Positions 3,628-27,030 are shown, numbered from the stretch's first letter. The stretch is 64,000 nt of DNA from Candidatus Binatia bacterium (GCA_038245295.1 JBBRSP010000002.1:320001-384000), one strand, 5' to 3'. The notes: generated by a model not told the origin, from the letters alone. A program made the numbers and translations.

Positions 3628-4812
3628 ATGAATCCAAGCTTCAAAGAGATGATGAACGAGGTTGTCGCGTACGGAAGCTGTTGCGAGTGTGGCAGTTGCG
3701 TCCTCGTTTGCCCGCACAACGTCATCGACTACGTCGAGAACAAGCCCAAACAGGTGGCTAAGGCGACGAATCCATTCGACTATTGTGGCATCAGTGAAGG
3801 CATTGGTTGTGATTGCTGCGCCCAGGTTTGTCCGCGCCTGGGTGAGCGCGAACATCACATGACCGACCAGGTGTTTCCGGATCAGGGCGACTCTTATCAC
3901 GGCGCCTTTGGTGTGTACCGGCGCGTCGTGGCGGCGCGGACGAAGGATCCTGAAGTATTGGCGCGCTGCGAGGATGGCGGTGTCGTGACAACGATGCTGT
4001 GTTGGGGCTTGCGCAACGGTAGCTTCGACGGCGCGGTTGTTTCGGCGATTGACGCGGACAAGCCTTGTGAGCCGCAACCACGCGTTGTCACCAATGTGGA
4101 CGACGCGATTCGCAGCGCCAGCTCGTGGTACACCTACTGCCCCAACAATCTGGCGCTTGCCGACGCGCAGAAGCTGGGCCTGACGAAGGTCGCCTTCGTC
4201 GGCGTGCCGTGCCAGATCACGCCGGTGCGCAAGATGCAGCTCGTCGACCCGGGCTTCCTGACCAACGGTCGCAAGAAGGACAAAATCATCGAGAAACAAA
4301 CCGGCTTCCTCAAAGGTTTCGGCGAGCGCGTTGCGCTAGCGATAGGCCTGTTGTGCAGCGAAGTCTTCGATTTTCAGGAACTGATGCTTGATACGATTCG
4401 CGACGAGATGGCGATCCCCCTTTCGGAGATCCGCCAGTTCAACGTCAAGGGTAAGGTTCAGATCTTCAAGAAGGACGGCAACCTCGTCGAGATCCCGCTA
4501 CGCGAGGCGCAGGAATACGCGCGACCGGAATGTCACCACTGCGGTGACTTCTCGGCCGAACTGGCGGACATCTCGTGTGGTGGCGTCGGCGCGCAGGGAT
4601 GGACCATCACGGTAATCCGCACCAAACGCGGCGAGGAAGTGTTCCACGCCATGGAACAGGAAGGCCTCCTCGAAGTGCGCCCGATCGAAGAGCTTGAAAC
4701 ATCCATGAAGGTGCTGTTGCGTTTGGCGCGTAAACAAAGGGAGCGGGTGCCGTCGCCGCCAGGGCGGCCAGAATCATGGGCTCGGCCGGCAGGCTTCGGC
4801 GGCGCCCACTAG
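3628..4812 (+). CDS. Coenzyme F420 hydrogenase/dehydrogenase beta-subunit (FrhB/FpoF-like) flavo-iron-sulfur protein
   Basis: N-terminal ferredoxin motifs CCECGSCVLVCP and CDCCAQVCP; DGGVVT, VGVPCQ, IGLLC and CHHCGDFSAELADISCG. Confidence 0.85.
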   Translation: MNPSFKEMMNEVVAYGSCCECGSCVLVCPHNVIDYVENKPKQVAKATNPFDYCGISEGIGCDCCAQVCPRLGEREHHMTDQVFPDQGDSYHGAFGVYRRVVAARTKDPEVLARCEDGGVVTTMLCWGLRNGSFDGAVVSAIDADKPCEPQPRVVTNVDDAIRSASSWYTYCPNNLALADAQKLGLTKVAFVGVPCQITPVRKMQLVDPGFLTNGRKKDKIIEKQTGFLKGFGERVALAIGLLCSEVFDFQELMLDTIRDEMAIPLSEIRQFNVKGKVQIFKKDGNLVEIPLREAQEYARPECHHCGDFSAELADISCGGVGAQGWTITVIRTKRGEEVFHAMEQEGLLEVRPIEELETSMKVLLRLARKQRERVPSPPGRPESWARPAGFGGAH

Positions 4813-4838
4813 GAACTTAGGAACAAGGAACACTCATC

Positions 4839-5942
4839 ATGCAAAATGGGGGCAATTGCCCTCCGAAATTCCCGCCGCACTACCTCGAGCAGCTCATAGA
4901 AAACTCTCCCGACATCGTTGTCGCGGTCGATCGTTTTGGGACGATCGTCTACTACAACGACGGGGCGGAGAAGACGCTTGGTTACGCGGCCGGCGAGATC
5001 CTCGGTAAGAAGGTTACCGATATCTACGTGTCGGCTGCGGAAGCAAAACGCGTCATGGCGGCAATGCGAGGCGACGAGGTCGGCGGCCCGGGCAAAGTAA
5101 AGAACTTCGAAACGATCTTCGTGGATCGGTGGGGTCAGCGGATGCCGGTCGCCATCTCGGGATCGATCTTGAGCGATGACGATGGCTTCGAAATCGGCTC
5201 CATCGGCTTCGCCAAGGACTTGCGGGAGATCCGCCGCCGTGACCGCCTGGCGACTCTGGGCGAAGTGGCGGTGGCGGTTTGCCATGAAGTGAACAACCCT
5301 CTGGCTGCGATCATGAATCAGGTGGAGATCCTCGATACCCACTTGCGCGAAGCAGCCACCGAGAGTGGTGGCACACCACCGGAGGAGCAACGCCTAAAGG
5401 ATATCCGGCGCGAGCTCGAGAAGATTCAGAAAGCCGTCGGCAAGCTCGAAGCCTTCTCGCACGGCGAAGAGTACGAGACACGCGAGTACAACCGCGGCAC
5501 CAAGATGGCCGCACTCTCGGCACCTCCCGAAGCGGGGGCGCTCAGCGGCTTGCGGATTCTCGTGGTCGACGACGATATGGCCGTATCACACTCGGTGCGT
5601 GACCTGCTGATCGAGGAAGGTTGCGAGGTCGTCACCGCTCACGGCGGCCTGGAGGCATTGCGTCTATTCGATCGCCTACCGTTCGACGTCGTCATCAGTG
5701 ATGTCGTCATGCCTGATCTCGACGGATACGATCTCTACATGGAGATCAAGCGCCGCGGTTCCACGACACCGGTGTTGCTCATGACGGGCTATTACTACGA
5801 CCGCGACCACGTGATTAAACGCAGCCGCCTCGAAGGGTTGGAGCAGGTGTTGTTTAAGAAGCCGGTCAACCCGGAACGGCTCAAGGGTTTGATTCGCGGA
5901 CTCTGCCGGAAACCGGGCGCGTCGGCTCAGCCGTCGGTTTGA
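4839..5942 (+). CDS. PAS-HisKA-receiver signalling protein without an ATPase domain
   Basis: PAS (LIENSPDIVVAVD...YYNDGAEKTLGY), H-box CHEVNNPL, C-terminal REC (ILVVDDD, ISDVVMP, FKKP). Confidence 0.85.
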   Translation: MQNGGNCPPKFPPHYLEQLIENSPDIVVAVDRFGTIVYYNDGAEKTLGYAAGEILGKKVTDIYVSAAEAKRVMAAMRGDEVGGPGKVKNFETIFVDRWGQRMPVAISGSILSDDDGFEIGSIGFAKDLREIRRRDRLATLGEVAVAVCHEVNNPLAAIMNQVEILDTHLREAATESGGTPPEEQRLKDIRRELEKIQKAVGKLEAFSHGEEYETREYNRGTKMAALSAPPEAGALSGLRILVVDDDMAVSHSVRDLLIEEGCEVVTAHGGLEALRLFDRLPFDVVISDVVMPDLDGYDLYMEIKRRGSTTPVLLMTGYYYDRDHVIKRSRLEGLEQVLFKKPVNPERLKGLIRGLCRKPGASAQPSV

Positions 5943-6366: not shown

Positions 6367-6505
6367 ATCGTCGAAACGTAGTCTAGCATGAGTGTCGATG
6401 GAGGCACGCCGGACCGCGTTGGGGGTTGGGGGTAGGCGTCGGGCCGTGCCGAACGGTGCTTGCCCAAAATGGTGTCGATGTGCTCTGACGACAGCGGAGG
6501 TGATG

Positions 6506-7162
6506 ATGGGTTTGCGGGAGCGACGGCAAGCGGCACGATTGGGAGTGCTGCTGCGCGTCGAGCGCGGTTTATGGGGATCGGGTATCGCCCGGGTTGCCGG
6601 ATGTGACGAAGTCGGTGTGGGACCATTGGCCGGGCCGGTTGTCGCCGCGGCGGTGATCATGCCGCAAGACGGCCATCTGCGCGGCGTCGACGACTCGAAG
6701 AAACTCTCACCTCTCCTGCGTCAGCAACTCGCCGAGCAGATTCGAGCCACCGCACTTGGCATCGGGATCGGCATCGTCGATGTCGCTACGATCGATCGCC
6801 TCAACATCTACCACGCCGCCCTCGAAGCGATGCGGCGCGCGGTCCTGGCGCTACCGGAGGCACCGGATCATCTCGTCGTCGATGCGCGGACAGTTCCCGG
6901 AATCGACCTGCCGCAAACGCCGATCATCGGTGGCGATGCGCGCAGCTATTCGATTGCCGCGGCATCGATCATCGCCAAGGTGACGCGTGATGCCATGATG
7001 TGCGAACTCGACCAGCAATACCCGGAGTATGGGTTTGTCCGCCACATGGGATACGGCACGGCGGAACACCGTGCGGCATTGGCACGCTTCGGGCCGACGC
7101 CGGAGCATCGCCGCTCCTTCGCTCCGGTGCGCCAGCTGTCGCTCTTCCCGATACTTGCCTGA
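6506..7162 (+). CDS. rnhB: Ribonuclease HII
   Basis: GCDEVGVGPLAGPV, DDSKKL, IAAASIIAKVTRD, GYGT, HRRSF; GGAGG RBS at 6496-6500. Confidence 0.95.
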   Translation: MGLRERRQAARLGVLLRVERGLWGSGIARVAGCDEVGVGPLAGPVVAAAVIMPQDGHLRGVDDSKKLSPLLRQQLAEQIRATALGIGIGIVDVATIDRLNIYHAALEAMRRAVLALPEAPDHLVVDARTVPGIDLPQTPIIGGDARSYSIAAASIIAKVTRDAMMCELDQQYPEYGFVRHMGYGTAEHRAALARFGPTPEHRRSFAPVRQLSLFPILA

Positions 7163-7171
7163 AGCTGCCCG

Positions 7172-10100
7172 CTACACTTCTTCGAGCAGGAAGTTGAGAT
7201 CTTCGCGTGTCAAACTGCGGGCGAAGCTGTCTTCGCCACCCAGGACATCGCGACTCAGCGTCGCCTTGCGCTGCTGTAGCTCCCAGATCTTTTCTTCGAT
7301 CGTGCCGACACTCAGCATGCGGTAGGCGATCACACTGCGATCCTGACCGATGCGGTGCGTACGGTCGATGGCCTGGGCCTCGACGGCCGGATTCCACCAC
7401 GGGTCGAAGAGGATGACATACGTCGCCGCCGTGAGGTTCAGGCCGGTGCCACCGGCGCGCAGCGAGATGAGGAACACCCCGGCCCGCTCGTCGTTCTGGA
7501 AGGCGTCGACCACTTCCTCGCGATTCTTCGTCGCACCCGTGAGCATGTGGTACGGGATCTCTCGCGTTACGAATTCCTGCTCGATCAACTTCAGGCACTC
7601 GACGAACTGCGAGAAGAGCAAGACCTTATGGCCCTCGGCGAGAAGCGGCTCGAGCATCTCGAACAGAGTCTCGAACTTGCCGGAACTGAGCGAAGCCTTG
7701 CCGCCGGCGAGGGCCGGATGGCAGCAGATCTGTCGCAATCGCGTCAGCGCCGCCAGGATGTGAATCTTGTTCTGCGCAATGCCCCCCGGCTCGTCGGCCA
7801 ATTGGTTGACCAACGTGCGGCTACGCCGTGCCTCGGCGAGGTAGAGAAGCCGCTGCTCCTTGGTCATCTCGCAGTCGATGCGTTCCTCGATGCGCGGCGG
7901 CAACTCCGGGGCAACCTCGCGCTTGGTCCGCCGCAGCAGCACAGGCCGCAGCTTGGCGGTGAGCAGCGAGCGTGCATAGGGGGGCGCGTCGATGCGATCG
8001 AAGCGCGACTGAAACTGCGTCCGCGTTCCGAGATAGCCGGGGTTGGCGAACTGCAGAATACTCCACAGGTCGAGGGCGCGATTCTCAAGGGGCGTGCCGG
8101 TCAGGGCCAGACGATGATTTGCTTGCAGCGCCTGCGCGGCGCGGCTGACGGCCGCGTCGGGGTTCTTGATGTTCTGGGCCTCGTCGAGGATAGCGGCGAG
8201 CAGCGGCGTCTTGCGCCAGATCTCGATGTCGCGTCGCAGCAACGCGTAGTTCGTCACGATGACGTCGTACTCGCTGAGTTGATCGAACGCCGCCTTACGG
8301 GCTTCGCCGCTGGCGAGGATGATGATGCGCAAGTCCGGTGCGAAACGCTCTGCTTCGCGCGCCCAGTTGTGAACCACCGAGGCCGGACAGACGACGAGGG
8401 ATGGGCCCTCGCTGCCGCTCTCGCGCAGGTGCATCAGCCAAGCGAGAGCCTGAACCGTTTTTCCGAGACCCATGTCGTCGGCCAAGATGGCGCCGGCGCC
8501 GAGAGACGAGGTGTAGGCGAGGAAGTCGAGTCCACGCCGTTGATACGGTCGCAGGTCGGCGCGCAGCCCGTTGGGTGGTGCCACGACCGGCAGGCCTTTG
8601 AAGTCGACAACTCGCTGCCGCAGCTGCCGCACGGCTTCGAGGGTCGCCGCGTCGGCGCCGTAGTGCTCCAGCGACCCGAGGCTGTTCGGGTTGGCACTCG
8701 CAAGCTGCCACAGACTCAGCCGCTGTGGCCCGGCGCCGGCCTCAATGCCCAGATCGGCGAGGACCGCGGCGGCCTCGTCGTGCAGTTTAGCCGTCTCGCG
8801 TTGCACCCAGCCGCTGCTGAGACGGACAAAGCGTGCCGATGACGAGCGCAATTGCGCCAGATCGTCATCGTTCAAGTCGAGACCATCGGCTTGCCATTCG
8901 GTAGACACGGCGAACCAGTCAACGCCGCTCGATTCGATGTGTAGTTTCGGGCTGATCTGAAAGCCGGCTCCGAGCAGGCGACGCAGGCGCGGTGTACCGA
9001 AGTAGGCTGCCTCGGCCGGTCGTTCCTGCCAAACAGCCGACATTCGTTCGATCGTCTTCGCCGTCAAACGCAGCCAGCGTCCAACCGCCCGGTCCGGCCA
9101 CGTCAGCCCGCGATTCGCCGGCGGTGTGCCAAACGTTACGGCGCCGAAGGCTTCGACCCAGGCCTGCATGGGCTCTACCGCGGCGGCATCGGGCTGTTCC
9201 ATCCACGGCTCGTTCGGCGGCGCTGCAGCGTTGCTAGCTTCTGCCTCGACGGTTGCGGTCGGTAACGCCGCAGGCACGTCGGCCGATGGCGTCGATTCGA
9301 CCGACGCAAAATCACCCTCCGGCGAGACCGGTTGTGCGTCGCTGCTGGCTTGGCTGTCGCAACGACGCCATCGTCCGTCCGTCTCCCATTCGAAGATGAT
9401 CTCGCCCGGGCCGGCGGTATTGCCGGGCAACCACGTCGAACGCGGTGGCCGGCTGAACAGGCGAACCTGCAGCCAGTCATCCTCGCGCAGATCGAGCGCC
9501 ACGACGGCTTGCGCCGGATGAAAGTGCGTGTGTGCCGCGACGATGGGTCGCAAATGCGGAAACGTCGCCGCAAGGCCATACAAAACCGTGTTGCGCTCGA
9601 CCGGGTGCAGCGGCAGGCCACGGGCGGCGTCGAATCGTCGCAGCAACGCCAGTGGTGGCTCGTCGGAAACAGCCGAGATGGCACCGTCGACGATCACGAA
9701 GCTTGGATGAGATTGCGCCGCCCCCCAACGTGTGTCGCCAGGAAGGTAGAGCGCCTTGTCGAGTGACCGCAACTCTCCCTCCGGAGAGACGACGCCGAAT
9801 TCGAGACTCACCTCGCCATCAACTTCGGTGCATGAGGGTAAGATGCGCTGCGGCCGTGACTCGTAACACAGCGGGGCATTCGGCTTTAGACCGGCGCGCT
9901 GTGCCAGATCTGGCGTCAGCTCCGGCCCCCACGTCACCAGCGCCGAGGATGCGGCGAACAGGATGACGGCGCGCAGCTGGGTACCGGAAAGAACGAAGCT
10001 CGAGGTTCGCGATGCCGTCGTGTACTCGGAGTCGTTCCGAGTGACGCGCTCGAGTAGCCAACGCAGCAGCGTCGCTTGCTCCGGTAACAGGATACCCGGC

Positions 10101-10984: not shown

Positions 10985-11236
10985 TAGGCCGCCTCCCTTA
11001 GCGAAGCCGGGCCGCCGGTGCAGGGGCAGAGAGCGAGATTTCGCCGAATCCTGGAATGGCGGTCGTCGAGGGCCCCTGTCGCCTGATGCTTCCTCCGTCC
11101 ATTGACGCCCGGCTTTGGCAGCTTGAGGCCCTCTCTAGGCCGGAGACGCAAAATCTTGGTTCTTTCGCAGGGAAAGGCTTTGAAACCCCTCACTCCACCC
11201 TATAAGGGATGAAGGGTCTGAGAAGGAGAACGCTTC

Positions 11237-13228
11237 ATGCGCAGCAAGTCCAGCAGGACAATCTTGCTGGCGTTGTTGGTACTGCCGTTGGTCGGCATTA
11301 CCAAAGTCAACGCCGCGGATTGCAGTAACGGGAATTTTGACAGTACCTTTGCGTTGATTCAAAAAGCGATTTTCGAAAATCGCGGCTGTACGAACGATCT
11401 CTGTCACGGCTCGGCCGCCACCGGCGGTCTCGATCTGCGCCCTGACGTTGCGTACGATAATCTGATCGACGTCAAGTCGCCGCTTTTGCCGGAATGGACG
11501 CGCGTTCGTCCTGGACGTCGCGATCAGAGCCTGCTGTTCATCAACGTCGCGGCGAAGACGGACCCGACTCACTACACGGCGCCCCTACGCGCCATGCCGC
11601 TCGATCCCCAACCGGCGCTGAGCGCCAACGAAGTCGAAGCGCTGCGCCGTTGGATCGAAGCCGGCGCACCCAAGGACGGCGTCATCAAGGGCACGGCCGA
11701 CCTGCTCGACGCCTGCCTGCCGCCGCCAGAACCGATCGCCATCAAGCCGCTCGAGCCGCCGGCACCCGGGACGGGCGTCCAGATTCGCATGCCGAAGACA
11801 ATCCTGCCGCCGCGTACCGAGCACGAAGTGTGCTTCGTGAGCTACTACGACCTGACCGATCAGGTCCCGGCCGAGTTCCGCGGTCCGGATGGCACGACGT
11901 TTCGTTACAAGCGCAACGAGATTCGTCAGGACCCGTTGAGCCACCATCTCATTGTCAGCCTGTATCAGGGCCAATACCCGCCGACCGCCGAAACGTGGGG
12001 CGAGTTCACCTGCGACGGTGGCGCCAAGGCCGGGCAAACCTGTCCTCCGACAGATACAACATTTTGCGGCGAGGGTCTGTGTTCGACCACACCGCAGATC
12101 AGCATTGCGTGTATTGGCTTTGGACCCTCCGATGCGGCCGTGGGACTGCGTTCCGCGGGCTTTACCGGCACGCAAGAGACGGCCGCCGAGTTCAACTTCC
12201 CGGAAGGCGTGTACCGCGAAGTCCCCCTGAAGGGCATGATCATCTGGAACTCGCACGCCTTCAACGTGTCCGACCAGGAAGGCAAGGTCGAAGCATGGTT
12301 GAACTTCCAGTTTGCTCCGCCCGAAGATCAACAGATACCAGCGCAGCAGATCTTTAACGCCAACGACCTCTTCAAGATGTCGGTGCCGGTGTTCAAGACA
12401 CAGGAGATCTGCAGTCCGAATCCGTTGCCCAAGAATACACAAGTCTACGAGCTCAGCTCGCACGCGCACCAGCGCATGAAGCGCTGGCGTACATTCATGG
12501 GTGCGTGGACGTGTGATGGTGGCCCAGCCGATGGCGCTAGCTGCTCGCCGGTTGGCTACGATTTCGTCAGCCCCGATGTCTGTCAGGGCAGCCCCTGCAA
12601 ATCGATGAAGAAGCCGAACGTCTCCGACTGTAACGGTGACGGCGAAGTGACGATCGACGAGCTGCTGCGTAGCGTCAACATTGCTCTCGAGTCGGCGTCG
12701 ATCGAGACCTGCACGGCAGCCGACAACAACTACGACGACGCCGTGACCATCGATGAGGTGACGAGCTCGGTGAACGCCGCCCTTGCCGGTGTCCCAGGCC
12801 GCGCCCCGCGCGATCCAATGCAGAGCCTGCTCTACACGAGCTTGATCTACAACGATCCGATCGTCTTGCGATTTGATCAGCCGCTGTCGTTCCGTTCGGC
12901 GCAACAGGCCGATCGCACGCTCACCTACTGTGCGCTCTATGACAACGGTTACATCGATCCTACGACGGTCAAGAAGCAGTCGACGTCGCCCAGGCCTCCG
13001 CTGGCGATTCCGGGCGTCGGTGGTCCATGTCAGAGGACAACCGGCTGCACCGCGGGTAAGGTCGGCATGACCTGCAGCAACAGCACTGTGGCGAAACAGC
13101 GTGATGCCTCGTGCGACACGACGCCCGGAGCCGGCGATGGCTTGTGTGATGGCTGCTTGCTGACCGGTGGCGTGACGACCGAAGACGAAATGTTCCTGCT
13201 GATGGGACAGTTCTTCGTCGCCCCGTAA
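11237..13228 (+). CDS. Secreted protein: cytochrome c-like domain + PHM/DbH-like copper monooxygenase domains + dockerin-like insert
   Basis: AGGAG RBS, signal peptide, CxxxxCH (C51/C56/H57) with later MP and RRWIEAGA; H236-H237, H340, H409-x-H411, DEM652. Confidence 0.7.
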   Translation: MRSKSSRTILLALLVLPLVGITKVNAADCSNGNFDSTFALIQKAIFENRGCTNDLCHGSAATGGLDLRPDVAYDNLIDVKSPLLPEWTRVRPGRRDQSLLFINVAAKTDPTHYTAPLRAMPLDPQPALSANEVEALRRWIEAGAPKDGVIKGTADLLDACLPPPEPIAIKPLEPPAPGTGVQIRMPKTILPPRTEHEVCFVSYYDLTDQVPAEFRGPDGTTFRYKRNEIRQDPLSHHLIVSLYQGQYPPTAETWGEFTCDGGAKAGQTCPPTDTTFCGEGLCSTTPQISIACIGFGPSDAAVGLRSAGFTGTQETAAEFNFPEGVYREVPLKGMIIWNSHAFNVSDQEGKVEAWLNFQFAPPEDQQIPAQQIFNANDLFKMSVPVFKTQEICSPNPLPKNTQVYELSSHAHQRMKRWRTFMGAWTCDGGPADGASCSPVGYDFVSPDVCQGSPCKSMKKPNVSDCNGDGEVTIDELLRSVNIALESASIETCTAADNNYDDAVTIDEVTSSVNAALAGVPGRAPRDPMQSLLYTSLIYNDPIVLRFDQPLSFRSAQQADRTLTYCALYDNGYIDPTTVKKQSTSPRPPLAIPGVGGPCQRTTGCTAGKVGMTCSNSTVAKQRDASCDTTPGAGDGLCDGCLLTGGVTTEDEMFLLMGQFFVAP

Positions 13229-17242: not shown

Positions 17243-18769
17243 TCATCGAACCACGCCGCCGCCGAGCGCGTTGCTCACCGCACCGATGATCTCATAGATG
17301 CTGATCGCCCCATCGCAATTGGTGTCGGCGATGGCACAAGCCGTGACAGGCTTGATGCCGAGGCTGATGTTCACCAGTGTCAGGAGCTCGTCGACAGTAA
17401 CCTGGCCATTGTCGTCGCAGTCACCAACGTTGTCGCTGGAGCTGGTCGGCGACGCCGAGACGATACGCAGGATACGATCGTCCTCCTCCGCCGGCCGACC
17501 GCGCCCATCACGATTGCTGGTGCTGACGTAAAGGGCGCCGTCCGGTCCTTCGATCACGTCGCGTAGGCGGCCGTAGACTCCATTGAATAAGCGCTCGATG
17601 GCCGTCACCTCGCCGTGTCCGTTGAAGACGACGCGTTGAAGGTGCTGCGCTCCGAGACTGGTGAAGAAGAGGTTTCCGGTCCACGACGCGATCTGCTCCG
17701 ACGAGTAGAAGGTCGCACCGCTCGGTGGAACAGCGCTCGACGGATATGTTAGCAGCGGATCGCGATACAACGGATTGCCGGGCGCGCCGACAACGATAGG
17801 CCACCCGTAGTTGCCTCCGGCGATTATGATGTTCACCTCGTCATAAGCGCCCAGGCCCACCTCACCGGAAGGTCCATGCTCGGTGGCGAACAACGCACCG
17901 CTGCGTGGTTCGAAGGCCAGCCCCTGCGGGTTGCGATTCCCATAGGTGTAGATCAGAGAGTTTGGCCCGAACGGATTGTCGCTCGGCACGCTGCCGTCAG
18001 GGTTCAAGCGCAGGATCTTTCCGGAGAGGGACGTGAGATCCTGGGCGCGGGCGCGTTGAAATCCCTCGCCGGTCGTTGCGTACAGTTTGCCATCGGGGCC
18101 GAATTTGAGTCGGCAACCATCATGGTTGTCGCCGCCCGCAATGTGATCGACGAGAATCTGCTCTTCTCCGCCGTGGCCGTCGATCTCGCGCCAGCGACTG
18201 ATTCGATTCACCGCCTCGTCATTCTCAGAAACCGTGTAACAGACATACGCCCAGCGATCGCTGTCGAAGTTCGGCGACAACGCCAACCCCATCAGCCCGC
18301 CCTCGCCAATCGCCCGCACCGCGATGGTTGCCCACGGTTGCGGGTCAAGCGTTCCATTGCGCACGACGCGGATACGCCCGCGCCGCTCGGTGACGAACAA
18401 TCGCTGGTCGGGCGCAAAGGCCAGCGACCAGGGGACCTCGAGCCCTTTCACCAGCGTGTCGACTCGCACTTCGCTTGGTGTTGCCACGCTGAATTGTGCC
18501 GGCATGTGTGGTGCGCCGCCGACGATGAGGCCGTTGGGCAGAGTTCGGATGACTCCCACAGGCTCCGATGCGTCGACAACTTTCTGGCCGCGCGGGGCAC
18601 AAGGATTTACTTGTGCCGTTGCCGGCAGGCTTGTCGAGGAGAGGAGAAGCCACAGGCAAGCCGACGCGAGTCGGAACCGTCGGGATAGGTCGCGAACCGC
18701 CCCTACAATTCGCGGCGACAAGACGTTGAAGGTTCGCAACGCGAACGATGTGCCAACCACGCGCAACAC
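17243..18769 (-). CDS. PQQ-dependent glucose/sorbosone dehydrogenase family protein with C-terminal dockerin-like domain (start uncertain)
   Basis: LEVPWSLAF, GEGGLMG, HDGCRLKFGPDG, GKILR, YGNRNPQG, EHG, NYGWP, GRLRDV; C-terminal GDCDDNGQVTVDEL. Confidence 0.9.
   Translation of the reverse strand: MLRVVGTSFALRTFNVLSPRIVGAVRDLSRRFRLASACLWLLLSSTSLPATAQVNPCAPRGQKVVDASEPVGVIRTLPNGLIVGGAPHMPAQFSVATPSEVRVDTLVKGLEVPWSLAFAPDQRLFVTERRGRIRVVRNGTLDPQPWATIAVRAIGEGGLMGLALSPNFDSDRWAYVCYTVSENDEAVNRISRWREIDGHGGEEQILVDHIAGGDNHDGCRLKFGPDGKLYATTGEGFQRARAQDLTSLSGKILRLNPDGSVPSDNPFGPNSLIYTYGNRNPQGLAFEPRSGALFATEHGPSGEVGLGAYDEVNIIIAGGNYGWPIVVGAPGNPLYRDPLLTYPSSAVPPSGATFYSSEQIASWTGNLFFTSLGAQHLQRVVFNGHGEVTAIERLFNGVYGRLRDVIEGPDGALYVSTSNRDGRGRPAEEDDRILRIVSASPTSSSDNVGDCDDNGQVTVDELLTLVNISLGIKPVTACAIADTNCDGAISIYEIIGAVSNALGGGVVR
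18688..18706 (-). repeat. Degenerate GTAGGGGCGGTTC-type REP
   Basis: GGTCGCGAACCGCCCCTAC, matching 33043-33066. Confidence 0.55.
18740..18755 (-). promoter_or_regulatory. Possible sigma54 promoter for the dehydrogenase gene
   Basis: TGGCAC-ATCGT-TCGCG (GG-N10-GC). Confidence 0.35.
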
Positions 18770-18832: not shown

Positions 18833-21178
18833 CTACTTCACTGTGAGGTGCACCAGGCGCGACGTACCCGGTGACAAGGCGGCCTTGAGCTGGAATGTGT
18901 GCTCGCCGACGCTGAGGGGCCAGCGCGCCGTATAGGGATAGGCGACCGTCGCGAACGGAGCGCCATCTACCCACCATACCGCCTGCTCGATCGGCGGGTC
19001 GACTACGGCACGCAGGGCGATTGTCGAGAACTGTGCCGGGCTGTCGGGATCGCGCATGACATCGGCTCCATGCACGGGCGTGACTATCGTCAGCTTCGGT
19101 GTCTCCGATTCCTGCGGCCCGGTTCGACTCATTAGGGCCGCCGGGCCGTCGTAGCCGGCACTGACGGACCAGGCGGCATAACGCGACGGCAACGTTGTGA
19201 CGGTTCGCACCTGCACGAAGTTGACGGGTGTATCTGCCCCGGCGACCCGGCCGTCTCGTCGATCAACGGCGACGCGCTGGTGCGCCTGGCAATCCTGCAT
19301 CGGCTCATCACCGGGGCGGAACCATTCGACGAACACTTGGCCGCAGGCCGGTGTCGCCCGCATGCCGGTGAGGGCGCAGATGCGTTCGGAGTGATACTGC
19401 GGCGGCGGTTCAAACGGCAGATCATCGAGACCGCCGCGCTGATCATTGTGCAGCGCGAGGAGAATGGATTGTGCCAGGCTCGCCGCCGAGTGAAACGCCG
19501 TGAGCTTGCTCATCGGCCGATGTTTCGGATGCCCCAACCAGACGCCGACGACGTAACGCGTCGAATAGGCCACCGTCAGGGCATCGCGGTACTTCGACGA
19601 TGTGCCCGTCTTCAGCGCCACTGGGAACGGATACTCACTCGGCCCCATGCGCGGAAAGGTTGGCAGGCGGGCCATCGGGTCGGCGAGAAACAAGGTGATC
19701 TGCCGCGCCGTGGCCTGCGACAGAACACGACGCGGGACATCGAGAGGTTGGCTGCGCAACCAGACGAGATCAGACAGCACACCATCACGCGCCAACGCGG
19801 TGTAGGCGTGGACCAGATGTTCGAGCGTCACTGGCAGCGCGCCGATCGCCAGGCCGAGGCCAAGCTCGTGTGGATCCTCAGCGCCGTTGTGCAAGCCGAG
19901 TTGCTGCAAGAAAGCGTAGCCGTCGCTCAAACCGATACGTGCCAGCAACGCGGCCGCCGGCACATTGCGCGAGTTGGCCAGCGCGACACGCGGCAACAAC
20001 GGACCGAGGAACGTTTCGTCGGCGTTGATGATGTCACCACGCGGCCGTTGGATGTCGTCGAGAATCGTCGCCGGGGAGATGGTCCCGCGCTCCAACCCAA
20101 GCGCAAACAGGAACGGCTTCAACGTGCTACCTGGGGAACGATCGATGCGACTGTAGTCGAACGCGCCCGCATGCGCCTTATCGAAGTATCCCGTCGAGCC
20201 GACCGCGGCGCGAACTTCATTGGTGGCGCGGTCGACAACCAGCACCGCGGCGTTGCCAACCCCACGCGATTCCAGCTCCCGCACGGTCTGCTGCGCCAAC
20301 CCCGCGACCATGTTCTGGGTCGGCAGGTCGACGGTCATGTCGGTCGTACCGTTGAGGTCGATGCGCCGCTGCGCGTCGCGAAGCCATCCTTCGACACGCG
20401 CAATCAGGTGCAGGGCGTTGGTCGGGCGCGGTGGTAGCGGCGGAATTTGCAGCCGCGTCAGTTGCACTCTGGCCAACTCGAACGCGTCCTGATCCATCTT
20501 GCCGGCATCGAACAAGGCGCGCAGGATCCGTTGCCCGCGCTCTCTGGCGCGCTGGAGGCCCGTGGTCGTGTAAGGGTCACTGCGAGCCGGAGCCTGCGGT
20601 AGTGCTGTTAGAAAAGCGGTCTCGGCCCAACTCAAGTCGTCGACCGGTTTGTTGAGATAACGCCGCGCCGCATAGGCGATGCCGTGGATTCGATGACCAT
20701 ACGGCGCCAGGCGCAGGTACTGAGCCAGGACAGCCTCGCGTCCATAGGTGATGGTCAGCAACAGCGCCGTCGTCGCTTCACTGAGCTTGCGAAGATACGT
20801 CCGCGAACCTGGGCGTTGCATGCGGGCGACCTGCATGGCAATCGTCGAGGCCCCCGAAAGGCGGCGCCCGCTGCGCCAGTTTTCCGTCAGGGCTCGCCCC
20901 ACGGCGACCGGATCAATGCCGGGATGCCGGAGGAAGCGCCGGTCCTCGACCAACAACGTCGCCGCGACGACGCGTGGAGGCAGCTGACGCATGGCCCAGT
21001 AGCCCAGCTCGAGCTCGGGTCGAGCCGCGACCTCGCCGAGAAAGGCTCCCTGACGATCGCGCAGGTAGACCGAGGCCGGTGGCGACACGAGACGATCGTG
21101 TGTGGCAACGAACCAAACGCCGCATGCGACAAGCACAGGCACCACCACGGCGCCCCATCTCGACCGTTGCATCAGCAC
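18833..21178 (-). CDS. pbpC: Penicillin-binding protein 1C (transglycosylase/transpeptidase)
   Basis: EDRRF, GASTIAMQ, SPGSTLKPF (SxxK), SRN, KTGT; lies directly after the alpha-2-macroglobulin gene. Confidence 0.92.
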   Translation of the reverse strand: MLMQRSRWGAVVVPVLVACGVWFVATHDRLVSPPASVYLRDRQGAFLGEVAARPELELGYWAMRQLPPRVVAATLLVEDRRFLRHPGIDPVAVGRALTENWRSGRRLSGASTIAMQVARMQRPGSRTYLRKLSEATTALLLTITYGREAVLAQYLRLAPYGHRIHGIAYAARRYLNKPVDDLSWAETAFLTALPQAPARSDPYTTTGLQRARERGQRILRALFDAGKMDQDAFELARVQLTRLQIPPLPPRPTNALHLIARVEGWLRDAQRRIDLNGTTDMTVDLPTQNMVAGLAQQTVRELESRGVGNAAVLVVDRATNEVRAAVGSTGYFDKAHAGAFDYSRIDRSPGSTLKPFLFALGLERGTISPATILDDIQRPRGDIINADETFLGPLLPRVALANSRNVPAAALLARIGLSDGYAFLQQLGLHNGAEDPHELGLGLAIGALPVTLEHLVHAYTALARDGVLSDLVWLRSQPLDVPRRVLSQATARQITLFLADPMARLPTFPRMGPSEYPFPVALKTGTSSKYRDALTVAYSTRYVVGVWLGHPKHRPMSKLTAFHSAASLAQSILLALHNDQRGGLDDLPFEPPPQYHSERICALTGMRATPACGQVFVEWFRPGDEPMQDCQAHQRVAVDRRDGRVAGADTPVNFVQVRTVTTLPSRYAAWSVSAGYDGPAALMSRTGPQESETPKLTIVTPVHGADVMRDPDSPAQFSTIALRAVVDPPIEQAVWWVDGAPFATVAYPYTARWPLSVGEHTFQLKAALSPGTSRLVHLTVK

Positions 21179-21185
21179 GCCGGGC

Positions 21186-24100
21186 TCACTGTCGTTCGAT
21201 CTCGATGCGGGCGCCGGCCGAGTTGCCGCGCACGCTGCCGTCGTACATCAACTCGGCGAAGGCAGCGGGCTGAATGAACTTGCCGGCTGTCGTCGCCCGC
21301 GTGCGCACGTAGAAGTCGTACGTTCCCTTGGGCAATTCGTCGTAATAGAAGGCTGCCCGGTCATCGAGAAACATCACATACGTTGGGGTCAACGTCGTCT
21401 GCCCGCTCGGCTTGGCCGCCGCCGGGGCGGTGGCGAGATTCGGATTGAGCGGTTCGACGCCGGCGGCGAACGGCAGAACGACCGCCACGGAGTGATGGTC
21501 CAGCGGATTGACGAGTTGCAGGTGCTCCTCAACGACATCGCCGATCACCAGCTTGGCCGTCATCCCAGCGCTGCTCAGCGCGATGCGTTCGGGTGGGATT
21601 GTCTCATCGACAGCCACGCGCTGCAGTTCACGGCTGACGACGAAGCCGCCTGCCACTGGGCTGACCTGACTTCCATCCGCCGCTGGGATGTATGAGATCT
21701 CGGCTCGGGCGATGACCGGCGGCGAGGTCGCATCTCCCGTCGATGTGATTGTGCCGTTGCCGCTCGACGTGCCCAGCCATTGCGTCAATGGCGCCTGCGG
21801 TCCGATTGCCAACGTGCTGTCTCCGTCGTCGTCCAGGTGCAGCGCGATTGTGTGCGGACTGCTGCCCGCAAACGGCGGCTCCAGAACCGCGGCCAGGGCG
21901 CTGAGCGCCGCCGCGTTGGCATTGGTCGAGCCCCAGCCATCGCCACGTCCGAGTGCGACCAGGGCGTTGACCAACAATGGCAGGCGTTTCGCGCCGCCCT
22001 CGGTGCGGGCAATCGCGCGCGTTACTTCGGCCAAGGTCCGCGTTTCACTCGGCAAGACCTTTGGATTGATATCGTCCAGATTGTGCTGCAGCCCACCGTA
22101 GACCTCGTGGCCCTGATACAAACGGATCGTTAGTCCGTCCCACAGCTTCTGAATCAGTCCGTCGAGAGTCGATGACTTGTCACCCGTTGCGGCAAGGGCC
22201 TGGGCGATTTGTGCTGTGGCCTCCAGGTTGAGGAATTGCGACCGCCGCGCCAGTTCCGCCGTGTAGGCCGTGTCGGCACGGCCGGCCGCCGTCAACGCAC
22301 TCAGAGCCCAGGCGCGTTCCAGAAAGGCCTCGCCACGGACGAAGTGACTGTAGTCGGAACGCAGCGCCGCATTGAGCGAGCCGATCAAGCGCTCGTACAG
22401 GGGCGCCTCGATCGTGTAGCCGGCCGCCTTCGCTTCGGTAAGGAACTGCACCGACCAGGCGGTGAGGCTGACGCTTCCCTGCGTTCCCGGCCAGAAGGCA
22501 CACAAGCCGTTGTCGTCGACCACCTGCGGCAGCCAGGCGACGAAGTCGTTCACTGGTTTGTCGGCGTGCTCCGGCGAGTCCTGCTCCTTCAGCAAACGGC
22601 GAAACTGTTTGAGGGCCACGTGCACCCGCGCCTGGCTCAAGCGCTGTTCGGTGCAGCTGTGTGGATAGTGGCGCATGAAGTCGAGTCCCGCCGCCATGCG
22701 CACCAGGGCCGGCTGATCGGAGACGATGAGACTGCGACGTACGGTGCCGGGACGGGCTTCCTCGGTGAGTGCCGGCAACGTTGCGGCGATGCCTGGTTGA
22801 AGATCAAGCAGCACCCGCAAGGCGACACGGTCTCGATCGTCGCGGATCGGCAGCTCGACTTCGACGGCGTCGCCGGCCTTGTCGGCGATACGTTGGGTCG
22901 CCACTTTCACGGTCATGGTATCGCGACTCAGCTTGCAGTCGGCTGTGTAGGGCGGCGTTGCGACCTCGATCGGAAACTCGACGCGCGATGGTTCGGTGAG
23001 TGACAAGGTGATCTGCGGTTCGACCCCGGGCACCGCAGTGCCATCGATCCACGCGCCGACACGCGCGGCACCGGCATCACCTTCGACGACTCGACTAATC
23101 ACGGCGGCGGTAAAGCTGTCGCCAGGACGAACGAAACGCGGCATCGCTGCCTGCGAAACAACCGGCTTGCGCACGGCGATGTTGCCGGTGGCGAAGCCGA
23201 AGCGATCTCCGCCGCTCACGGCTTTCGCGCGAATCTTGAAATTGGTCAGATTGTCCGGCAGCTCGACCGTAACTGTGGCAACACCATCGTTACCGACGAG
23301 GATCGACGGGTTCCAATAGGGCACCGGCTTGAAGCTACGCCGCACCGTCATCTTGTCGAACGGCGCTGCCTCTTCGCCTTCGCCTCCGGAGCCGCCGGGG
23401 CTGTCGGCAAACGGAATCCAGCCGAAGACCATGTTGCGCGTATCGTGCATGCTGAAGAAGGACTGCGGATTGGTGATGAAGTCCGGCAGCGGGTCGAGGC
23501 GTTGCTCTTTGCCCAGCGCCAGCACGGCTTGATCGACGAGCCACAGAGTTACTTCGCCGCCCAGCGGTTTGGCGTGCGCATCACGAAGACGAATCGTGAT
23601 CGGTACCTTGTCGCGCGGCAGGGCTTTCTCGGCATACTCGAGTCCGATCTGCAGGCGATGCTCGGTTGGCTCGACCGACACCCATGACGTCGCCGCCATC
23701 GTCGTCGGCCGGCCCAGATCAATCTGATCGGTGGGAGCGTTGGCTTCCGCCAGCCGGCCACGCATCAACACGAAGTGCACCGGAACGCGCGGTACGAAGT
23801 TCTTGCTGATCTTGAGCGGGTAGGTGGCGCTGCCGCCTTTGACGTCGAGCCATTCGTAGTGATTGCCGTCGGGCGCTTCGACGACGACCAGGGCGTGTGC
23901 TTCCTGGAATGGACTCTTCAGCACCATCTGCGCCGTCTCGCCGGGATTATAGGTGGGCTTGTCGGTCGCCACGTCGAACACACGTGTCGCCGGTTTGTTC
24001 CAGCTCACCGGTTCGTCACCAGCGGCATAGAGATCGACGGAAACGATCTGCGAGCGATTGAGTTTGTCGCGCGCTTCGAGCTGCACGATGTAAACCCCCG

Positions 24101-27029
24101 GATGGTCGATCGGCAGGCTCAAGCCCTTGGCCGCCGCTTCACTGGTGAATGTGGTTTCGCTCACCTTCTCGTCGACGATCTCGGTGACGTAGCGCGCCGT
24201 GCCGTCGGTGAAGTCACTGGCGCGCAGGTGCGAGTGCCACTGGCGTGACAACAGGCGAACCGTGACCTCGACTCCCGTGACGAGCTCGCCGTTCGGCCCG
24301 ACGACGATCGCCTCGGGTTCGATGGCGTGCACCTTTTCGATGTAACGCGGCGCCTTGATGCCGAGCACGAACGGCGGCAGGGCCAGGACGTGTTTGGTGT
24401 TGGTGACGGTTTGATCATCGGCGCCGGTGACGGTTGCTTCTACGATGTAGCGTCGTGGCTGCGCCGACGGTTCGATCGCCGGGTTGAGCGTCAGCTCCGA
24501 GGCGCCGCTGTCATCCGTGACGTCGTCGCGCTCTAGCTTTGGCGTCGAGTCGAACTTGCCGTTGCCGCTGAAGCGGGAGTCCGACGAGTAGACGAAGCCT
24601 GGTTTGGCCGATGGGCTCCAGACATAGGGGAACTGGGTGACCCGCCAGCTGATCGGCCGACGGCTGACGCTGCCTCCCGCATAATACTGCGCTAGCAGTT
24701 TGACGTTGAACTCCTGATCGAGCGGCACCTTCTCCGGCGCGTTCAACTGCACCTCGAAGGTTGGAATGCGATACGCCTCGACACGGAAGCGCACCTCACC
24801 GAAGCTCTCTTCCTTCTTGTTCTCCAGGTGCGCCTTGTATTCGCCCGTCGGTAGGTTGGCTTGCTGGAAGACGGTATCGAAGCTTCCGTACGCGGACAGC
24901 GTGACAGGCAGGCGCCAGACATTGTCCTCGCCCGGTCCGTTCACCACCAGGGTCGGCGTATCGACGCTCTTGACTCGGAGCTCGCCGGCGGCGCGCTCGC
25001 GTAGATATCCCTTCAGGTAGATCTCTTCCTGGGGCCGATACACCGGTCGCTCGCTGAACAGATGACAGAGGAGCTCGGGTTTTGGTCCGCGATCCGTCAA
25101 CGGTTCGAAGGCCCACTGCAACCACGTCGCGGCACTCGGCGCCCAGTGATTGTCGGCGTACTGATCGGGCGCATGTTCGGGATCGAGGACGAGCACGTCG
25201 CGATCCTTGCGCACGACAATGCGGCGCATGCGCGGTGAGAGGTTGCCGACCTCGCCGGGCGCGCGCCACGACCAGGCGCCGCTATCGTCCGTGGTACCGC
25301 TGGCCAGCGACTTCCATTCCTTGTCGTAGATCCCCTGCAGATCAACTGTGGCGCCGCGCACCGGCATGGCGCTGGCCAGCGATGTGACGACGACGCGCAC
25401 GGCGTGTGGCTCTTCGAGTGTGCTCAGGCTGAGGTCGGTTGTTTGCAAACGCATCCACGAGCGCTGGTTGGAGCGGTCGAGTTGGCGCGCGCCGACCAGA
25501 TAGTGCCCCGGCGCATGGGCACCGCTGAGATGCGTCAGTGGCGCTGCCACATCGAGGCCGAATGTCGCGGCACTGCCGCCGCGGCGCAGCGGCAAAGGGA
25601 CGATCTGCGAAAACGGTGGCGCCCCGAGCATTTGGATGAAGCCGGGCAAGGCGGTCGTCGACACATTCTGGAGGCTGGTGTGTGGCGTTGGTTCTTCACC
25701 GGGCCCGGGCGGACGTTGTGATTCGTCGACGAAGACCGGCGACGCCGGGAAAGGCCACAGCGAGCGATCGAGTGGATCGATCGAGTAGACTCGCAGATCA
25801 ACGCGGTCCTCGCCTCGGCCACTCAGCGGCAGGCTCTGTGGACCGAAGCGTTCGATGATTCCCGACGCGACGCCCCAACGTAGAAACTCCTCACGATGTG
25901 GAAAGAAAAAGTGCAACGAGCTCTCGCCGCGGAGATCGAGTGGACGACCGGCCTCGTCGCTGATCGTCGTCGGCTGCAGGCTCAGCTTGTAGATCTGATC
26001 GGCCGAGAAGGTGCCGCGTACGAGCAGTGTATTGCCACTGAGCTCGAAGGTCAGATTGTCGACCGGGGGCGTGATGTGCACGAGGTTGCGCGCGACGACC
26101 GGCCCGAGCTCTAGCGGCTTCGACGAGAAGTCGATCATCAACTCACGCGACCCGCCGCCGCAATCGAGGGCCTGCGCTGCATCGTATACCGATCCGTCTT
26201 GTGAAATCGGGTAGCTGTGTTTCCCGAACTGCTGGCGGCGCTGGTACTGATTCTGCGTGTCGCCGTTCACCGACCGGCAACCGGTTTCGACAATGCGGAA
26301 TGGCTCCGCCGTGGAGAAGCTCAGGCGCGCGAACGAGTCGCTGGCGCGATCGTCGAGCGAAAGCCGCAGGTGAGCCGTTGCCTGTGTACCCAGCGGAATC
26401 TCGCGGTGCAGATGCACGACATACGTGGCCGGGTCGTTCGGCGAGTGCCGCTCCATCGTCTTGATCTCAAAGTCGTCGCGCGTCAGCCAGCGCGAATTGC
26501 GCGCATCGACGCCGGGGACCGGACGCAGCTCGAGGGTCAGCATGCGCACGAGCGATTCAACCTCGAGTGGTTCGGCAAAGGTGAGCGAGATGGTGTCGAG
26601 CCGCATTAGCCCGATGGCATTGTCCGGCGGCACGGTGGTCGTCGGCGCCGACATCAGTGTGATCAACGTGAACGCCTGGCCGTTTACCGTCCAGGAAACT
26701 CGCGCCAGGGGCGGCCACGGAATGGCCGGCTTGAACTGCAGCGTCTGCGCATCGAGCCAGGTGAAGGCACCGGGGTGCCGCGGCTGAATCTTGAGCAGAC
26801 GCTCGGGGTGATCCTCGGGCCCCGGCTTCTTGGGGCCAACCGACTTGTCGAAGAAGATCGTGACCGGATCCCAACGACGCAGGAAGTGATCGGGGATGAT
26901 CGTCGTGCCTGTGGCGGCGGCGGGGCGCTGGGAGACCGCCGTGGAATCCGTGGCGCGCGCTGTTCCGGTGGCGCATGCCAGGAGGCAGAGCAGGGCGGCG
27001 AGAGTCGAGCGGCGCGGACGCGAGTCCAT
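21186..27029 (-). CDS. Bacterial alpha-2-macroglobulin
   Basis: GAGGA RBS and ATG at 27029, signal peptide; ERPVYRP, VDQAVL, LPDNLT, PRFVRPGD, thioester motif YPHSCTEQ, AELMY. Confidence 0.93.
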   Translation of the reverse strand: MDSRPRRSTLAALLCLLACATGTARATDSTAVSQRPAAATGTTIIPDHFLRRWDPVTIFFDKSVGPKKPGPEDHPERLLKIQPRHPGAFTWLDAQTLQFKPAIPWPPLARVSWTVNGQAFTLITLMSAPTTTVPPDNAIGLMRLDTISLTFAEPLEVESLVRMLTLELRPVPGVDARNSRWLTRDDFEIKTMERHSPNDPATYVVHLHREIPLGTQATAHLRLSLDDRASDSFARLSFSTAEPFRIVETGCRSVNGDTQNQYQRRQQFGKHSYPISQDGSVYDAAQALDCGGGSRELMIDFSSKPLELGPVVARNLVHITPPVDNLTFELSGNTLLVRGTFSADQIYKLSLQPTTISDEAGRPLDLRGESSLHFFFPHREEFLRWGVASGIIERFGPQSLPLSGRGEDRVDLRVYSIDPLDRSLWPFPASPVFVDESQRPPGPGEEPTPHTSLQNVSTTALPGFIQMLGAPPFSQIVPLPLRRGGSAATFGLDVAAPLTHLSGAHAPGHYLVGARQLDRSNQRSWMRLQTTDLSLSTLEEPHAVRVVVTSLASAMPVRGATVDLQGIYDKEWKSLASGTTDDSGAWSWRAPGEVGNLSPRMRRIVVRKDRDVLVLDPEHAPDQYADNHWAPSAATWLQWAFEPLTDRGPKPELLCHLFSERPVYRPQEEIYLKGYLRERAAGELRVKSVDTPTLVVNGPGEDNVWRLPVTLSAYGSFDTVFQQANLPTGEYKAHLENKKEESFGEVRFRVEAYRIPTFEVQLNAPEKVPLDQEFNVKLLAQYYAGGSVSRRPISWRVTQFPYVWSPSAKPGFVYSSDSRFSGNGKFDSTPKLERDDVTDDSGASELTLNPAIEPSAQPRRYIVEATVTGADDQTVTNTKHVLALPPFVLGIKAPRYIEKVHAIEPEAIVVGPNGELVTGVEVTVRLLSRQWHSHLRASDFTDGTARYVTEIVDEKVSETTFTSEAAAKGLSLPIDHPGVYIVQLEARDKLNRSQIVSVDLYAAGDEPVSWNKPATRVFDVATDKPTYNPGETAQMVLKSPFQEAHALVVVEAPDGNHYEWLDVKGGSATYPLKISKNFVPRVPVHFVLMRGRLAEANAPTDQIDLGRPTTMAATSWVSVEPTEHRLQIGLEYAEKALPRDKVPITIRLRDAHAKPLGGEVTLWLVDQAVLALGKEQRLDPLPDFITNPQSFFSMHDTRNMVFGWIPFADSPGGSGGEGEEAAPFDKMTVRRSFKPVPYWNPSILVGNDGVATVTVELPDNLTNFKIRAKAVSGGDRFGFATGNIAVRKPVVSQAAMPRFVRPGDSFTAAVISRVVEGDAGAARVGAWIDGTAVPGVEPQITLSLTEPSRVEFPIEVATPPYTADCKLSRDTMTVKVATQRIADKAGDAVEVELPIRDDRDRVALRVLLDLQPGIAATLPALTEEARPGTVRRSLIVSDQPALVRMAAGLDFMRHYPHSCTEQRLSQARVHVALKQFRRLLKEQDSPEHADKPVNDFVAWLPQVVDDNGLCAFWPGTQGSVSLTAWSVQFLTEAKAAGYTIEAPLYERLIGSLNAALRSDYSHFVRGEAFLERAWALSALTAAGRADTAYTAELARRSQFLNLEATAQIAQALAATGDKSSTLDGLIQKLWDGLTIRLYQGHEVYGGLQHNLDDINPKVLPSETRTLAEVTRAIARTEGGAKRLPLLVNALVALGRGDGWGSTNANAAALSALAAVLEPPFAGSSPHTIALHLDDDGDSTLAIGPQAPLTQWLGTSSGNGTITSTGDATSPPVIARAEISYIPAADGSQVSPVAGGFVVSRELQRVAVDETIPPERIALSSAGMTAKLVIGDVVEEHLQLVNPLDHHSVAVVLPFAAGVEPLNPNLATAPAAAKPSGQTTLTPTYVMFLDDRAAFYYDELPKGTYDFYVRTRATTAGKFIQPAAFAELMYDGSVRGNSAGARIEIERQ

Positions 27030-27030
27030 T

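Follow-up and report, generated by a model that had tools for sequence, protein, structure and literature searches.

How a bacterium might run a copper enzyme of the PHM/DBH type is the question raised by one gene in a 64,000-nucleotide stretch of DNA from a Candidatus Binatia bacterium (GCA_038245295.1 JBBRSP010000002.1:320001-384000), called the window hereafter. In animals, two non-coupled binuclear copper monooxygenases, dopamine beta-hydroxylase (DBH) and peptidylglycine alpha-hydroxylating monooxygenase (PHM), serve to produce noradrenaline and amidated peptide hormones, respectively. To our knowledge, all characterised PHM/DBH-type enzymes are eukaryotic and ascorbate-fed. The original prediction had seen in this gene a secreted PHM/DBH-like dicopper protein fused to a c-type cytochrome domain of its own. 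The reading that we favour, with a probability of about 0.62, is that the product, P0001, is an exported, self-wired dicopper monooxygenase in which a heme c feeds a PHM-type copper pair and a small organic substrate is hydroxylated.

Translation of the window confirmed the open reading frame, which runs on the plus strand and encodes 663 amino acids (Table 1). All motif positions given for it turned out to be exact: CTNDLCH at residues 51-57, M120 within AMP, RRWIEAGA at 137-144, H236/H237, H340, H409/H411 and M652 within TEDEM. The ordered ten-ligand pattern (CXnCH, Met, HH, H, HxH, EM) did not arise in any of 10,000 shuffles of P0001. It occurred in seven of the 42,933 six-frame open reading frames of the genome, all seven being members of the P0001 family. 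The gene, first seen as a single one, is thus real but not alone: it is one of seven full paralogues in its own genome (G000), which also carries one more distant sister gene, and belongs to a large family. It is flanked by an SNF2 helicase gene in divergent orientation and by a dipeptidase gene that converges on it, so that it forms a one-gene unit. A promoter and terminator scan found no sigma-70-like promoter for the gene, and the terminator-like matches fall inside it. The sole hydrophobic 19-residue stretch of P0001 in the hydropathy profile is the N-terminus. An N-terminal hydrophobic stretch is common to 114 of 120 aligned sequences, which bears out the proposed signal peptide, and a Tat motif was present in none of the 120. 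Judged by eye, the signal peptide is probably cleaved after VNA. Export of P0001 is likely.

Table 1. Features of the P0001 gene and its product (positions in the window).
Feature	Position	Strand	Basis
Shine-Dalgarno-like AGGAG	11224..11228	+	8 nt before ATG, from sequence
Gene, 663-aa cytochrome c/PHM-like dicopper protein (P0001)	11237..13228	+	translation; homologues
Predicted Sec signal peptide, residues 1-26	11237..11314	+	hydropathy; helix 6-19 at low pLDDT
Predicted monoheme c-type cytochrome domain, residues 27-160	11315..11716	+	model pLDDT 95; FoxE Z 7.9; hydrazine synthase alpha Z 6.8
CX4CH heme-attachment motif (C51, C56, H57)	11387..11407	+	118/120; 223-domain count
M120, predicted distal heme ligand	11594..11596	+	120/120
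PHM-like N-terminal beta-sandwich (CuH domain), residues 170-362	11744..12322	+	model, VIA
H236/H237, matching PHM H107/H108 (CuH)	11942..11947	+	120/120; mapped via sister profile
Cys-rich CxGGxxxGxxC insert 1 (259-282)	12011..12082	+	motif in 40 genome ORFs
Loop 293-312, variable among seven paralogues	12113..12172	+	paralogue comparison
H340, matching PHM H172 (CuH)	12254..12256	+	120/120; mapped via sister profile
PHM-like C-terminal beta-sandwich (CuM domain), residues 367-663, broken by inserts	12335..13225	+	model, VIA
H409/H411, matching PHM H242/H244 (CuM); S407 at PHM R240 place	12461..12469	+	120/120; sister profile
Cys-rich insert 2 (426-454)	12512..12598	+	sequence motif
Dockerin/EF-hand-like repeat pair (462-518)	12620..12790	+	profile matches 118 genome ORFs
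Cys-rich insert 3 (598-640)	13028..13156	+	alignment, model
M652 in GGVTTEDEM, putatively matching PHM M314 (CuM)	13190..13192	+	120/120; motif likeness, structural alignment to residue 663

The copper core is the best supported part of this reading. With the AlphaFold model of P0001 (mean pLDDT 92.2, pTM 0.87), the top Foldseek match was human DBH (4zel, E 1.3e-8), followed by rat PHM. When superposed on PHM as had been proposed, residues 168-663 of the model aligned in VIA with 5wja at Z 17.1 (264 aligned residues, rmsd 3.2) and displayed the two beta-sandwiches; human DBH 4zel reached Z 16.6. In total, 26 PHM/DBH entries lay at Z 12.9-17.1, whereas the next fold scored Z 8.0, which supports the predicted PHM/DBH-like dicopper fold. 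Direct sequence searches of Pfam, NCBIfam and the PDB with P0001 or its alignment yielded only weak EF-hand/dockerin matches. The anticipated Pfam families (Cu2_monooxygen, Cu2_monoox_C) were not recovered for P0001, neither PF01082 nor PF03712 being matched, probably owing to the inserts. The P0001 family becomes visible only via structure or via the profile of its sister family. That profile, built from 59 of 121 available sister sequences, detects DBH and PHM at the sequence level, at E 2e-5 to 5e-5, and brings their HH, H, HxH and EM/EH motifs into register; it aligns with the P0001 family at a probability of 99.8% through residue 442. As it registers with both sides, the three CuH histidines can be equated with H107/H108/H172 and the two CuM histidines with H242/H244 of PHM (ligand numbering from the accessible text of PMC9064607; PDB titles were also used). 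M652 would correspond to PHM M314, as motif likeness and the span of the structural alignment suggest. The predicted ligand order, CuH before CuM, is thus supported by structure together with the profile chain to PHM, and P0001, as modelled, very probably contains a PHM-type dicopper core.

Conservation of the six copper ligands and the heme motif in homologues had been proposed as a check and was found to be nearly complete. The homologue search scored 7994 candidates and returned 716 homologues at E<=0.001, the best 120 of which (the query and 119 others, 53-67% identical) form our close alignment. All 120 sequences retain the six copper ligands and M120, and 118 retain C51, C56 and H57, the remaining two having gaps there. 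P0001 has 24 cysteines, and the 22 outside the heme motif are kept in 118-120 of the 120 sequences. A profile search against representatives at 50% identity gave 270 matches at E<=1e-30. Among the 149 new matches listed from it, 73 distant representatives span the protein; 69 of these retain all ten ligands and four, as aligned, are without one or more.

The heme domain was confidently modelled as a helical unit also when residues 27-165 were folded alone (pLDDT 95). M120, W139, G143 and A144 are identical in 120 of 120 sequences, and the model places a helix at residues 130-141. Foldseek gave only weak matches for the lone domain, led by hydrazine synthase alpha (E 0.048), with mostly c-type cytochromes below. 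In a wide VIA search FoxE came first (Z 7.9, rmsd 2.7, 95 aligned residues, 24% identity), followed by YhjA and PccH; these top three are all c-type heme proteins, matched with middling scores. The C-terminal heme domain of hydrazine synthase alpha aligned at Z 6.8 (rmsd 5.1, 105 aligned residues). Compared with these nearest solved relatives (FoxE, 5mab; hydrazine synthase alpha, 5c2v), the P0001 domain has CX4CH for CXXCH and a single heme motif, and is fused to a copper core. The accessible text of PMC10654088 models a FoxE relative with His/Met-ligated hemes. C29 and C160 possibly form a disulfide.

The two domains occur together almost without exception. Among 291 proteins that contain the start of the CuH domain, collected from the homologue search, the profile search and the related loci, the cytochrome lies directly upstream in 276 with a median spacing of 20 amino acids, a count in which fusions are favoured, since the cytochrome was part of the queries. 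The rest comprise 12 fragments, P0224 and P0240, which look misjoined or frameshifted, and P0144. This last protein (1458 amino acids) is the single clear cytochrome-less case, and its PHM-like core has also lost all six copper ligands, one case of co-loss; it is likely a pseudo-enzyme, as its sequence suggests. A search for short cytochrome-less forms, itself weak evidence, scored only 81 candidates and gave 14 matches, each spanning at most 65% of residues 170-422. A complex prediction that treated the cytochrome domain and the copper core as two chains and included heme scored 0.22 against a mark of 0.32 and is evidence in neither direction. The near-obligate fusion suggests electron flow from heme to copper. 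The cytochrome is also a mobile module, which speaks against a dedicated role: seven open reading frames of the genome carry it but lack a PHM core, and P0243 joins two copies of this CX4CH module to lysyl-oxidase-like domains. Such proteins may equally constitute the donor pool. One relative, P0158, is fused to a PQQ-type propeller; another fusion, that of P0208 to an RnfC-like tail, probably stems from misassembly and was disregarded. On G000 C71, L086:2044-3063 (-) encodes a lipoprotein-like protein in which two cytochrome domains of the CX4CH/Met type stand in tandem. The gene lies close to one for a multiheme cytochrome, and its product is, from the sequence, a candidate periplasmic electron carrier. 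It has no sequence match with FoxE.

Our proposal for the mechanism is as follows. After export, attachment of heme at C51, C56 and H57, with M120 on the other side, would give a His/Met six-coordinate heme that acts as a one-electron relay and replaces ascorbate. Single electrons may enter this heme from periplasmic donors, for example quinoprotein dehydrogenases or respiratory-chain cytochromes. The heme would then load CuH (H236/H237/H340) and CuM (H409/H411/M652), with entry presumably through CuH. With O2 bound at CuM, an activated C-H bond of a small substrate would be hydroxylated, as PHM and DBH do with ascorbate. The substrate is likely other than a glycine-extended peptide, and the substrate range may be spread over the paralogues. 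According to the accessible text of PMC8981238, a c-type cytochrome reduces bacterial copper LPMOs: CjX183 of Cellvibrio Cbp2D likewise passes cytochrome electrons to exported bacterial copper monooxygenases, the AA10 LPMOs. In contrast to P0001, however, these are separate proteins with a mononuclear histidine-brace copper and an unrelated fold.

Beyond the dicopper core and the covalent heme, the rest of the doubt is about direction and reaction type. The same cofactors could serve another chemistry, in which electrons run from copper to heme for respiratory export, the heme primes a peroxygenase, or O2 or nitrite is reduced without hydroxylation. The architecture alone leaves the electron direction unset, and heme c-fused copper nitrite reductases exist. 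PHM has been crystallised with nitrite (3mib, 3mlk), and it runs a peroxide shunt (PMC9064607, accessible text). We nevertheless regard such chemistry as unlikely in P0001. The full PHM ligand set is invariant, including the CuM methionine that PHM needs for monooxygenation (PMC9064607, accessible text), and VIA matched no type-1 copper fold to the P0001 model.

The sister family departs from P0001 at precisely this methionine. The sister gene of the same genome (L007:7134-8543 (-), at about 119.1-120.5 kb of G000 C11) encodes a CX4CH cytochrome followed by a PHM core and passes the PF03712 cut-off. Among 120 homologues, 119 have His in the place of the CuM Met, and 74 carry a lipoprotein-like signal by a loose pattern; the PHM C-domain Cys positions are kept. 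Rat PHM M314H is inactive according to the accessible text of PMC9064607, so the His-type sister family may do different chemistry; it is a natural counterpart of this inactivating exchange. Bacterial relatives known by annotation only are homologous (BLAST E 4e-12), and the sister family shares the arrangement of cytochrome plus core. The P0001 family differs from both in that it escapes PF03712, PF01082 and NCBIfam and keeps the CuM Met. A literature search found no study of the annotated relatives or the sister family.

In a rival reading, C51 and C56 form just another disulfide, and the copper core is fed by a small reductant as in animals. The 24 richly conserved cysteines, the atypical CX4CH spacing and the middling cytochrome matches would fit such a heme-less protein. 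It is made quite improbable by the heme site itself, which among 223 homologous domains reads CX4CH in 212, CXXCH in 9, such as P0142 and P0201, and CX6CH in 1, with none in 1, so that the canonical motif takes the place of CX4CH nine times. Moreover, H57, M120 and W139 are invariant in both the P0001 and the sister family. The heme domain of P0001 has no Pfam match, and none in the genome exceeds the cut-off; however, the homologous domains of P0126 and P0201 reach PSCyt1 or CBB3 Pfam matches, and homologous heme domains weakly match TIGR03806. CX4CH hemes are carried by Desulfovibrio cytochrome c3. The genome contains ccmA, B, C, E, F and H at about 191-201 kb of G000 C3; at 96.6% completeness, it gave no match to ResB. 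Its CcmE is of the Cys type, which marks System I* of Desulfovibrio (PMC3601427, accessible text). The c-type heme domain of the original prediction is therefore supported by the CXXCH/CX4CH interchange, the invariant Met, the cytochrome-type structural matches and the Ccm system, and a covalent heme is predicted for P0001 with good confidence. One study described in the accessible text of PMC3601427 obtained an aberrant product with System I when the Cys spacing was changed, which calls for caution in expressing P0001 in E. coli. The ccm cluster (L087:1283-10614) combines a System I*-like Cys-type CcmE with a CcmH-like gene, and its ccmC is separated from ccmE by a transposase-like and an LpxA-like gene.

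Is P0001 then simply a bacterial PHM, hydroxylating the C-terminal glycine of secreted peptides in the first step of amidation? PHM is its closest solved fold, and the predicted export would be in line with this function. With rat PHM (1phm, 1opm, 1sdw, 5wja) P0001 shares the two beta-sandwiches, the order and register of the copper ligands and secretion. It differs in an identity of about 11%, the fused cytochrome c-type domain, three Cys-rich inserts and one dockerin-like insert, and its bacterial origin. Arg240 of PHM, which binds the peptide carboxylate (PMC9064607, accessible text), is absent: the position is occupied by S (99), T (13), G (5) or N (3) in the 120 close sequences, never by Arg, which makes peptide amidation unlikely for P0001. 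Arg does occur there in the distant paralogue C16, one of the seven. Furthermore, the residues after the Met are CNLY in PHM and FLLM in P0001, so that the Cys following the Met is missing as well. A PAL partner was not seen either, neither as a fusion in P0001 nor as a PAL-like family in the 25 largest neighbour clusters of the 74 related loci and the loci of its own genome. The recurring clusters of the 74 loci contained no lyase-like or peptide neighbour. A true PHM is accordingly very doubtful.

DBH (human, 4zel), tyramine beta-hydroxylase and MOXD1 share the copper core with P0001, and each has an extra N-terminal domain. The DOMON domain at the N-terminus of DBH and MOXD1 is absent from P0001, which has a helical CX4CH/Met cytochrome-type domain instead. 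It also lacks the dimerisation domain of DBH, and its reductant is likely other than ascorbate. The P0001 family therefore has the predicted fold and the ligands of PHM/DBH enzymes and neither the Arg240 of the PHM nor the DOMON of the DBH subfamily.

Non-catalytic copper binding, storage or sensing at the cell surface is highly improbable, since the many paralogues, surface-type repeats and missing operon that would suit it are outweighed by two sites in PHM arrangement, a retained Met ligand and a redox domain, all of which fit catalysis, and by the ligand-less relative P0144, which is also without the cytochrome.

The disulfide-rich and dockerin-like inserts named in the original prediction are present, but they proved to be generic modules of the secreted proteins of this genome and unspecific to the enzyme. 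As generic envelope modules they suggest a periplasmic or surface location and stand outside the chemistry. The dockerin-like pair matches PDB 5lxv_B weakly (E 0.31). It is found in 120 of 120 close and in 11 of 149 distant sequences and is missing from three of the seven paralogues. In its place, distant relatives have other add-ons, among them DUF4215 repeats and PEP-CTERM-like tails. In the genome, the pair tags 118 open reading frames, including one at 17243-18769 (-) of the window, and is a possible surface-sorting or scaffold module.

The 74 related loci come from a species-genome collection; 32 of them bear the title Candidatus Binatia, and the majority of the others that of Deltaproteobacteria or simply of bacteria. 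Within the window's class, 56 of the 121 genomes sampled contain the family, some with at least 10 copies. At E<=1e-30 it was found in none of 146 genomes sampled from other classes in the same phylum. The variable loop at residues 293-312 is, judging from the paralogue sequences, a candidate specificity loop. At about 6500-7900 (-) of L006 (G000 C16:46523-47887), a paralogue-like open reading frame has an N-terminal extension and a cytochrome domain and ends before the copper core.

The surroundings of the gene gave no partner. No conserved donor or substrate gene was found nearby in the 74 related loci, the largest recurring neighbour cluster being a generic short-chain dehydrogenase at eight of them. 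Six neighbours in the window were rejected as partners: the glyoxalase-like and carbonic anhydrase genes matched one of the 74 loci each, and no locus matched the genes for the dipeptidase, SNF2, RNase HII or the PQQ sugar dehydrogenase-like protein. Elsewhere in the window, we noted by eye an ordinary pair in which an alpha-2-macroglobulin-like gene precedes one for a penicillin-binding protein 1C-like product (18833-27635, -), and a gene for an FrhB-like Fe-S protein with a PAS/response-regulator hybrid after it (3628-5942, +).

In the literature, mostly open-access and searched in the main texts, we found no characterised bacterial enzyme of the PHM/DBH type and no description of a bacterial heme c-fused PHM-type enzyme. 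The words 'bacteri' and 'prokaryot' never occur in a review of PAM phylogeny (PMC6529398), and the accessible text of a 2025 PHM review mentions bacteria once, in an unrelated context (PMC12164859). In its accessible part, a survey of Binatota genomes (PMC8262859) names copper only for membrane monooxygenases (CuMMOs). The accessible parts of PMC12665527, PMC13489965 and PMC9084895 add nothing further on a bacterial heme-fused form.

If the monooxygenase reading holds, the family might represent a large undescribed bacterial branch of PHM/DBH enzymes with its own heme c wire into periplasmic electron transport, whose many paralogues hydroxylate extracytoplasmic organics; we offer this wider view tentatively, at slightly less than even odds. 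Together with its His-for-Met sister family, such a branch would show how the copper core worked before it was coupled to ascorbate in animals. It would also supply a natural optical probe of electron entry. How the two coppers of PHM cooperate is still argued, with long-range transfer over 11 A set against an open-to-closed motion (accessible texts of PMC9064607 and PMC12164859), and the built-in coloured one-electron donor of a bacterial enzyme would let electron entry be timed directly. A P0001-type enzyme is a possible ascorbate-free biocatalyst. For the organisms themselves, the presence of the family in almost half of the sampled genomes of the class points to an unrecognised extracytoplasmic oxidative capacity.
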